Shown piece after piece: positions 19,875 through 20,823 of a stretch of DNA of 36,598 nucleotides. The stretch lies in the sequence record PP384396.1; one strand, written 5' to 3'. The position numbers and the translations under genes are program-made. The stretch's first letter is position 1; every line of letters starts with the position of its first letter. This stretch comes from Teseptimavirus T7. The notes beneath the pieces were generated by a model. It was not told where the DNA came from. It saw only the letters and a program-made list of their open reading frames with translations, and made no database searches.

Positions 19875-20050
19875 TGCTGGGGGTGGCCTCAACGGTCGCT
19901 GCTAGTCCCGAAGAGGCGAGTGTTACTTCAACAGAAGAAACCTTAACGCCAGCACAGGAGGCCGCACGCACCCGCGCTGCTAACAAAGCCCTAATACGAC
20001 TCACTATAGGGAGACCACAACGGTTTCCCTCTAGCAATAATTTTGTTTAA
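18837..20050 (+). CDS. 10B: Minor capsid protein 10B (programmed -1 frameshift product) with C-terminus rewritten by the insertion
   Basis: Slippery region gtggttttcaaag retained at about 19855; the -1 frame after the 10A stop now reads ...AANKA then [19 protein letters not shown] and stops at TAA 20048-20050 inside the inserted promoter/leader, instead of the native ...AANKARKEAELAAATAEQ. Confidence 0.5.
19992..20014 (+). promoter_or_regulatory. Duplicated consensus T7 promoter (engineered second copy of phi10) driving mCherry
   Basis: TAATACGACTCACTATAGGGAGA inserted directly after ...gctaacaaagccc; +1 G at 20009. Confidence 0.95.
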
Positions 20051-20070
20051 CTTTAAGAAGGAGATATACC
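20015..20070 (+). promoter_or_regulatory. Gene-10-type 5' leader / RBS (pET-style) for mCherry
   Basis: ccacaacggtttccctctagCaataattttgtttaactttaagaaggagatatacc + ATGG; SD AAGGAG; differs from the native leader by A to C in TCTAGA and by a CCATGG start context instead of CATATG. Confidence 0.9.
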
Positions 20071-20781
20071 ATGGTGAGCAAGGGCGAAGAAGATAACATG
20101 GCCATCATCAAGGAGTTCATGCGCTTCAAGGTGCACATGGAGGGCTCCGTGAACGGCCACGAGTTCGAGATCGAGGGCGAGGGCGAGGGCCGCCCCTACG
20201 AGGGCACCCAGACCGCCAAGCTGAAGGTGACCAAGGGTGGCCCCCTGCCCTTCGCCTGGGACATCCTGTCCCCTCAGTTCATGTACGGCTCCAAGGCCTA
20301 CGTGAAGCACCCCGCCGACATCCCCGACTACTTGAAGCTGTCCTTCCCCGAGGGCTTCAAGTGGGAGCGCGTGATGAACTTCGAGGACGGCGGCGTGGTG
20401 ACCGTGACCCAGGACTCCTCCCTGCAGGACGGCGAGTTCATCTACAAGGTGAAGCTGCGCGGCACCAACTTCCCCTCCGACGGCCCCGTAATGCAGAAGA
20501 AGACCATGGGCTGGGAGGCCTCCTCCGAGCGGATGTACCCCGAGGACGGCGCCCTGAAGGGCGAGATCAAGCAGAGGCTGAAGCTGAAGGACGGCGGCCA
20601 CTACGACGCTGAGGTCAAGACCACCTACAAGGCCAAGAAGCCCGTGCAGCTGCCCGGCGCCTACAACGTCAACATCAAGTTGGACATCACCTCCCACAAC
20701 GAGGACTACACCATCGTGGAACAGTACGAACGCGCCGAGGGCCGCCACTCCACCGGCGGCATGGACGAGCTGTACAAGTAA
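20071..20781 (+). CDS. mCherry: mCherry red fluorescent protein (synthetic reporter)
   Basis: 236-aa product [83 protein letters not shown]...GGMDELYK; GC3-rich mammalian-type codons unlike the flanking phage DNA. Confidence 0.98.
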
Positions 20782-20823
20782 CGAAAGGAAGCTGAGTTGG
20801 CTGCTGCCACCGCTGAGCAATAA

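Follow-up and report, generated by a model that had tools for sequence, protein, structure and literature searches.

We consider it nearly certain that the 791 bp at positions 19992-20782 of the stretch of DNA analysed here (the window; 36,598 bp) are a laboratory-made reporter cassette within a T7 genome put together by synthetic assembly, most likely T7-compilation (T7_compile, PP384396) of Levrier et al. The construct is one that is already known: the phage genome is published, the reporter is an engineered protein, and the promoter and leader are copied from the phage. In the PHEIGES study of Levrier et al. (Nat Commun 2024;15:2223; PMC10933291), T7-compilation combines a mini genome, mCherry placed after gene 10 and a ReLPS tail-fibre mutation, and Supplementary Data 6 of that paper equates T7_compile with PP384396.

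The insertion and its reporter gene

The inserted block is made up of the following features:

19992..20782, + strand: synthetic insertion, absent from V01146 and PP384394, with junctions given by the mcherry-tt primers
19992..20014, + strand: added T7 class III promoter, consensus from -17 to +6, with the +1 G at 20009 (exact match)
20015..20070, + strand: gene-10-type 5' leader with the SD AAGGAG at 20058-20063 (identity to the phi10 leader)
20071..20781, + strand: mCherry coding sequence, 236 aa, not fused to 10A or 10B (236/236 identity to PDB mCherry; GC3 0.958)
20086..20091, + strand: codons 6-7 of mCherry, GAA GAA (allele comparison)

BLAST against the T7 reference V01146 placed the 791 bp on the + strand directly after T7 nt 24121. 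Window positions 10121-19991 correspond to V01146 14251-24121, and positions 20782-36598 correspond to V01146 24121-39937, such that the two flanks are contiguous in T7. The C at 20782 is common to both matches, and the boundary of the insertion is therefore ambiguous by one base. Immediately after the mCherry stop codon (TAA, 20779-20781) there is only this single C before T7 sequence resumes with GAAAGGAAGCTGAG. Sequence comparison detected the block in neither V01146 nor T7_mini (PP384394), and no single record of the phage collection searched spans 80% or more of window positions 18700-21100. An earlier note on this DNA, made from the letters alone, had proposed a pure insertion between bases contiguous in T7, with alignment to the reference as the check; that alignment, now run, bears the proposal out, with the join at 24121 and contiguous flanking bases.

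The note had also called the cassette synthetic. Consistent with this, the 791-bp block is 100% identical to the cassettes of three deposited genomes, PP384393, PP384395 and PP384397 (T7_mCg10o, T7_mCg17o and T7_mCg1o), where it occupies three other designed loci; the GenBank features there are labelled 'T7 promoter added for mCherry cassette' and 'mCherry, synthetic gene added'. The junctions can be traced to individual oligonucleotides. Primer mcherry-tt-s (82 nt) matches window positions 19942-20023 exactly, primer mcherry-tt-as (74 nt) matches 20758-20831 exactly as its reverse complement, and primers T7C-as3 and T7C-s3 end and begin, respectively, precisely at the insertion point. A chance match is of no concern, because the identity is exact both to an engineered protein and to published primers.

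The composition of the block sets it apart from its surroundings. GC content climbs to 0.62-0.64 over the mCherry ORF, and GC3 is 0.958 in mCherry as compared with 0.535 in 10A, 0.497 in gene 9, 0.503 in gene 11 and 0.523 in gene 12; the claim that the codons are GC3-rich relative to the phage DNA around them (0.50-0.54 in these four genes) is thus confirmed. Such a jump in GC and GC3, together with a duplicated promoter and leader, is a reliable signature of reporter cassettes. An equally sharp jump would be expected if the insert were an artefact of assembly or contamination, with vector reads chimerically joined to T7, or had been acquired naturally by horizontal transfer. However, each junction agrees to the base with designed primers whose T7 homology arms are 49-50 nt long, on which ground we rejected contamination and natural acquisition, and the same cassette is found at the three other designed loci. 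mCherry is a product of protein engineering and is not known to occur in nature. The authors also confirmed the phage by NGS and fluorescence (PMC10933291). We regard artefact or horizontal transfer as vanishingly improbable, and a deliberately built cassette as the reading to be carried forward.

The reporter ORF opens with ATG at 20071 and closes with the TAA at 20779-20781. The comparison of 20071-20781 with mCherry that the earlier note had suggested gave a full-length alignment: residues 1-236 align without mismatch to PDB mCherry chains (6ylm_A, E = 1.9e-161; others E ~1e-161). The hallmarks that had led to the ORF being read as mCherry are all present, namely the M-Y-G chromophore in its FMYGSK context and the GFP-type termini, MVSKGEE... 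and GGMDELYK, and the 236/236 identity to 6ylm_A settles the identification. A 255-aa antisense ORF (20053-20820, - strand) spans the whole mCherry gene; we dismissed it as the stop-free antisense frame expected at a GC3 of 0.96.

Codons 6-7 of the window allele read GAA GAA, where the earlier note gave GAG GAG for the common sequence, and the allele comparison supports the note: three PLSDB records match the ORF, all encoding the identical protein, and the two plasmid alleles that were inspected at codons 6-7 (pMQ OP009360 and pKD071 MK753226) both read GAG GAG. The pMQ gene and the window ORF are identical at 709/711 nt, the only differences being the two bases of codons 6-7. In the common allele, GGC GAG GAG GAT AAC ATG, these codons form AGGAGG six bases upstream of Met10. 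It has been reported that mCherry gives rise to a fluorescent short isoform from Met10, at a level set by an SD-like sequence through codon choice (Fages-Lartaud et al., PMC9395592). Pairing with the 16S anti-SD has a calculated duplex energy of -11.8 kcal/mol in the common allele, as against -4.2 kcal/mol in the window allele and -8.8 kcal/mol at the true RBS of the cassette. GAA GAA therefore likely removes an internal SD-like ribosome-binding site upstream of Met10. The GAA GAA allele is common to all the laboratory's cassettes (PP384393, PP384395 and PP384397), and the practical point for users of the phage is that its reporter is without the internal SD on which the short mCherry isoform from Met10 depends.

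Expression signals and the capsid reading frames

The expression signals of the insert are best considered with the native elements on either side:

18757..18779, + strand: native class III promoter phi10, in the upstream copy of a 78-nt repeat (exact 23-mer; identical to V01146 phi10)
18837..19874, + strand: gene 10A, major capsid protein, 345 aa, unchanged (no difference from V01146)
19856..20050, + strand: 10B -1 frameshift extension, with slip site GGTTTTC at 19856-19862, running into the insert (-1 frame translation)
20831..20872, + strand: native terminator Tphi, a 15-bp stem followed by a T run (terminator scan; identical to T7; annotated in V01146 and PP384394)
20889..21479, + strand: gene 11 (tail tubular protein A), a 196-aa ORF and the first gene past Tphi (ORF; T7 annotation)

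The added promoter at 19992-20014 is the exact 23-bp class III consensus, TAATACGACTCACTATAGGGAGA (-17 to +6). This 23-mer occurs seven times in the window and in none of 100 shuffles, and the suggestion that the cassette has its own consensus T7 promoter is accordingly upheld. Promoter and leader together form a 78-nt direct repeat, with 18757-18834 and 19992-20069 identical at 77/78 positions; the inserted copy is likewise 77/78 identical to T7 22887-22964. The start context is an NcoI-type CCATGG at 20069-20074, and the SD AAGGAG lies 7 nt before the ATG. The description of a gene-10-type leader with this SD and start therefore stands, on the strength of the 77/78 identity to phi10 and its leader. 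The sole difference is an A>C change at 20035, which turns TCTAGA into TCTAGC and so destroys the XbaI site of the leader. This C stems from the template plasmid, since it is present in all three deposited cassettes.

The two copies of the 78-nt repeat flank gene 10A rather than the reporter. Recombination between them would be expected to delete the essential capsid gene rather than mCherry, and simple excision at the repeats should therefore not lead to loss of the reporter.

We searched the + strand for terminators. None was found within the insert, which ends one base past the stop codon; lacking an internal terminator, the insert is not a self-contained promoter-RBS-gene-terminator cassette. 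The Tphi hairpin at 20831-20866 is the only + strand terminator-like hairpin between the 10A stop and gene 11, in agreement with the claim that no terminator separates 10A from the cassette.

These elements suggest how the cassette was built and how it would work. It was most probably PCR-amplified from a T7-promoter mCherry plasmid using primers with 49-50 nt of T7 homology, and these homology arms directed it to the site following T7 nt 24121, between the 10A stop and Tphi. Class III promoters fire after T7 RNA polymerase has accumulated. Once the polymerase is made, class III transcription would begin both at phi10 (+1 at 18774) and at the added promoter (+1 at 20009). Both transcripts would cross mCherry and would mostly end at the native Tphi, because the cassette brings none with it. 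Ribosomes would load at the strong gene-10 RBS (AAGGAG) to produce free mCherry, and infected cells should redden late in infection.

That the added promoter is used by T7 RNA polymerase during infection is what we would expect, because its sequence is identical to that of phi10. We likewise infer the share of each promoter, the efficiency of Tphi and any effect of read-through on genes 11-12. Levrier et al. reported that infected cultures fluoresce as lysis proceeds (PMC10933291, Figs 2d, 6b), with red fluorescence for T7-mCherry phages and for T7-compilation (Figs 2, 6). The fluorescence is consistent with an active added promoter but does not separate it from read-through from phi10. Taken with the positions of the promoters, stops and terminator, fluorescence upon infection (PMC10933291) supports the view, already put forward in the earlier note, of a late non-fused reporter, which would be transcribed from phi10 and the added promoter, with termination at Tphi.

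The placement of the cassette 'between capsid gene 10 and Tphi' holds for 10A but not for 10B. Wild-type 10B is annotated in V01146 as ending at T7 24162, and the insertion after 24121 consequently falls inside the frameshift extension. As judged by -1 frame translation of the window and of T7, the last 13 wild-type residues of 10B (wild-type tail ...AANKARKEAELAAATAEQ, then the stop) are swapped for 19 new ones, and the new stop, TAA at 20048-20050, lies inside the leader (ORF 19874..20050). Promoter and leader DNA would thus supply 10B with a new C-terminus of 19 residues. 10B is a minor capsid protein that arises through a -1 frameshift late in 10A; it is dispensable for T7 growth, which fits the viability of the phage. 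Neither 10B nor frameshifting in this context is mentioned in the text of PMC10933291. For phage users, the practical point is that the insertion silently rewrites the C-terminus of 10B.

T7-compilation was reported to lyse more slowly than its ReLPS parent phage (PMC10933291). The position of the cassette inside the 10B extension could matter here, with ~1/10 of capsid subunits bearing the neo-tail and a second class III promoter, close ahead of Tphi, raising read-through into genes 11-12; that either adds to the fitness cost of T7-compilation is conceivable but, in our view, unlikely.

T7 display systems fuse their cargo to the C-terminal region of 10B. The cassette interrupts the 10B reading frame, and the authors of PMC10933291 also made gp10b-FLAG fusions, both of which would suit display of mCherry on the capsid as a T7Select-type 10A/10B fusion. 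However, the 10A frame stops at TAA 19872-19874, the 10B frame stops at 20048-20050, which is 20 nt before the mCherry ATG and in a different frame, and a separate promoter, SD and ATG serve the ORF. With both capsid frames closed upstream of position 20071, mCherry is not a capsid fusion. The stop codons and the frame led us to rule out a display fusion, to which we attach practically no probability, and they substantiate the earlier description of the reporter as non-fused.

The genome that carries the cassette

The window is a complete linear engineered T7 genome, with 160-bp terminal repeats at 1-160 and 36439-36598. Its 36,598 bp are the sum of 39,937 bp, 1 bp (an A added at 1896) and the 791-bp cassette, less 4,131 bp (the net of three deletions after linkers). 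Apart from the cassette, the designed changes are as follows:

5891..5910, + strand: 20-nt orthogonal linker AATGCGTCATTTTACACGGC, bridging a deletion of T7 5890-8845 (genes 1.1 to most of 1.8); primers T7mini-A-24-as and T7mini-B-24-s
8256..8275, + strand: 20-nt linker AATATCACGCAAAAGCACCG, bridging a deletion of ~T7 11191-11479 (most of gene 3.8); primers T7mini-B-21-as and T7mini-C-21-s
10102..10121, + strand: 20-nt linker AATGCAAAGCTATTAGCGCG, bridging a deletion of ~T7 13305-14250 (end of 4.2 and genes 4.3, 4.5 and 4.7); primers T7mini-C-23-as and T7mini-D-23-s
32907..32913, + strand: edits at the gene 17 tip, T7 36246 T>A (gp17 S541R) and 36252 A>T (silent), from comparison with V01146 and Supplementary Data 3 of PMC10933291

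Each of the three linker junctions agrees exactly with its pair of T7mini primers; in all, ten published primers and linkers relevant to the design coincide exactly with junctions of the window. The deletion of T7 5890-8845 takes out genes 1.1-1.7, among them DNA ligase (1.3), and most of 1.8, along with promoters phi1.1B, phi1.3, phi1.5 and phi1.6 and the early terminator TE. With TE deleted, early transcripts made by host RNAP would now continue into gene 2. Some of the primary replication origin region, which adjoins phi1.1A/B, is presumably lost with this deletion as well. At the second deletion, phi3.8 is retained up to T7 11190 and most of gene 3.8 is gone, leaving phi3.8, the 20-nt linker and gene 4A in succession (window 8225-8295); the apparent SNP and 1-bp deletion that BLAST shows at 8274-8276 are produced by the linker's 3' end. 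The third deletion (window 10082-10141) truncates gene 4.2 seven codons early, the frame entering the linker and stopping at TAG, and also removes promoters phi4.3 and phi4.7.

Relative to V01146, the window carries +A at 1896, 22629 A>G (gp9 N227S), 27179 G>A (gp12 G780R), 36246 T>A and 36252 A>T. These variants, together with the three deletions and the mCherry insertion, are what Levrier et al. list for 'T7-compile' in Supplementary Data 3 (PMC10933291). gp17 S541R was described there as a host-range change to ReLPS strains. The +A at 1896 and gp9 N227S (window 18499) are present in every genome sequenced in that study, including the starting stock, and are therefore differences between the laboratory strain and the reference rather than edits. 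gp12 G780R (window 23840; tail tubular protein B) is listed in the Supplementary Data 3 table for T7-compile clone 1 only. Changes at the C-terminus of gp12, T773A and E784G, were found in ReLPS-adapted phages (PMC10933291), and G780R, which lies near them, may reflect adaptation and not a neutral error introduced by PCR.

There are small mismatches between the published table and the sequence. T7 8906 C>T (window 5971), which is silent in gene 2, is absent from T7_mini and unlisted in the variant table of PMC10933291, perhaps because the nominal deletion interval in the table (to 8949) covers the site. The table gives the insertion at 24004, as against 24121 in the sequence, and the first deletion as 5890-8949, as against 5890-8845; the published primer, too, disagrees with the interval in the table. 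These discrepancies, the unlisted 8906 C>T among them, are bookkeeping matters.

A different engineered phage of the same laboratory, such as T7-mC-S* (ENA OZ370878; 'A synthetic cell phage cycle', Nat Commun 2025, PMC12808745), or a re-sequenced and renamed T7-compile stock, could account for much of this. T7-mC-S* was also built by PHEIGES; it carries mCherry behind the major capsid gene, together with a T7 promoter and a fibre specific for RdLPS (S541R) (PMC12808745). However, that paper builds T7-Split-S* from T7 WT, and its text mentions the mini deletions for none of its phages, whereas the window has all three together with G780R, which the 2024 table lists for T7-compile clone 1 only. 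We therefore think it very improbable that the window comes from one of these other sources, and the nature of the feature is the same whichever laboratory phage is the source. With T7-compilation as the preferred source, the window is a published synthetic genome and not a natural one; in genome scans it should be marked as engineered and left out of any search for novel biology.

Comparison with known constructs

Judged by its published primer and variant tables, T7-compilation (PP384396), which was confirmed by NGS, fluorescence kinetics and microscopy on E. coli rfaC (PMC10933291), shares with the window the deletions, the 20-nt linkers, the mCherry junction primers, S541R and its silent marker, G780R, N227S and the +A at 1896. 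Two points differ from the published account. The window has the additional silent T7 8906 C>T, outside the published variant table, and the main text of PMC10933291 credits the cassette with a T7 terminator, whereas the native Tphi is the only one here, consistent with the mcherry-tt primers.

A search with the first linker junction led to T7_mini (PP384394, 35,807 bp), which is shorter than the window by exactly the 791 bp of the insert. Once the cassette is set aside, the window differs from T7_mini at 5 of 35,807 positions. T7_mini lacks the mCherry cassette, S541R, the silent 36252 marker, G780R and 8906 C>T, and carries gp19 P32L, which is absent from the window.

T7_mCg10o (PP384393) resembles the window in having the same 791-bp promoter-leader-mCherry block at a locus between 10A and gene 11. 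Its insert, however, begins right after the 10A stop, with 60-nt orthogonal linkers and ~160 bp of vector upstream of the promoter, and the genome around it is of full length (40,943 bp). The linker and vector upstream of the promoter amount to ~220 bp; an XhoI/His6/multiple-cloning-site remnant and the plasmid T7 terminator lie downstream, and the 10B extension of T7_mCg10o is replaced from the first codon past the 10A stop. By comparison, the insertion in the window is scarless, its site is 117 bp farther downstream, and it relies on the native Tphi for termination. The 'orthogonal oligo' (oho) design of PP384393 was rejected for the window, the oho primers being absent and the junctions different.

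At the level of its parts, the insert resembles a pET/pIVEX-type cassette (phi10, gene-10 leader and NcoI start) in its 23-bp promoter, s10 leader, AAGGAG and CCATGG, but it has no lac operator, tag or separate terminator, and the A>C change abolishes the XbaI site. The standard mCherry coding sequences (pMQ OP009360 and pKD071 MK753226) encode the same protein, with GAG GAG at codons 6-7 in place of the GAA GAA of the window.
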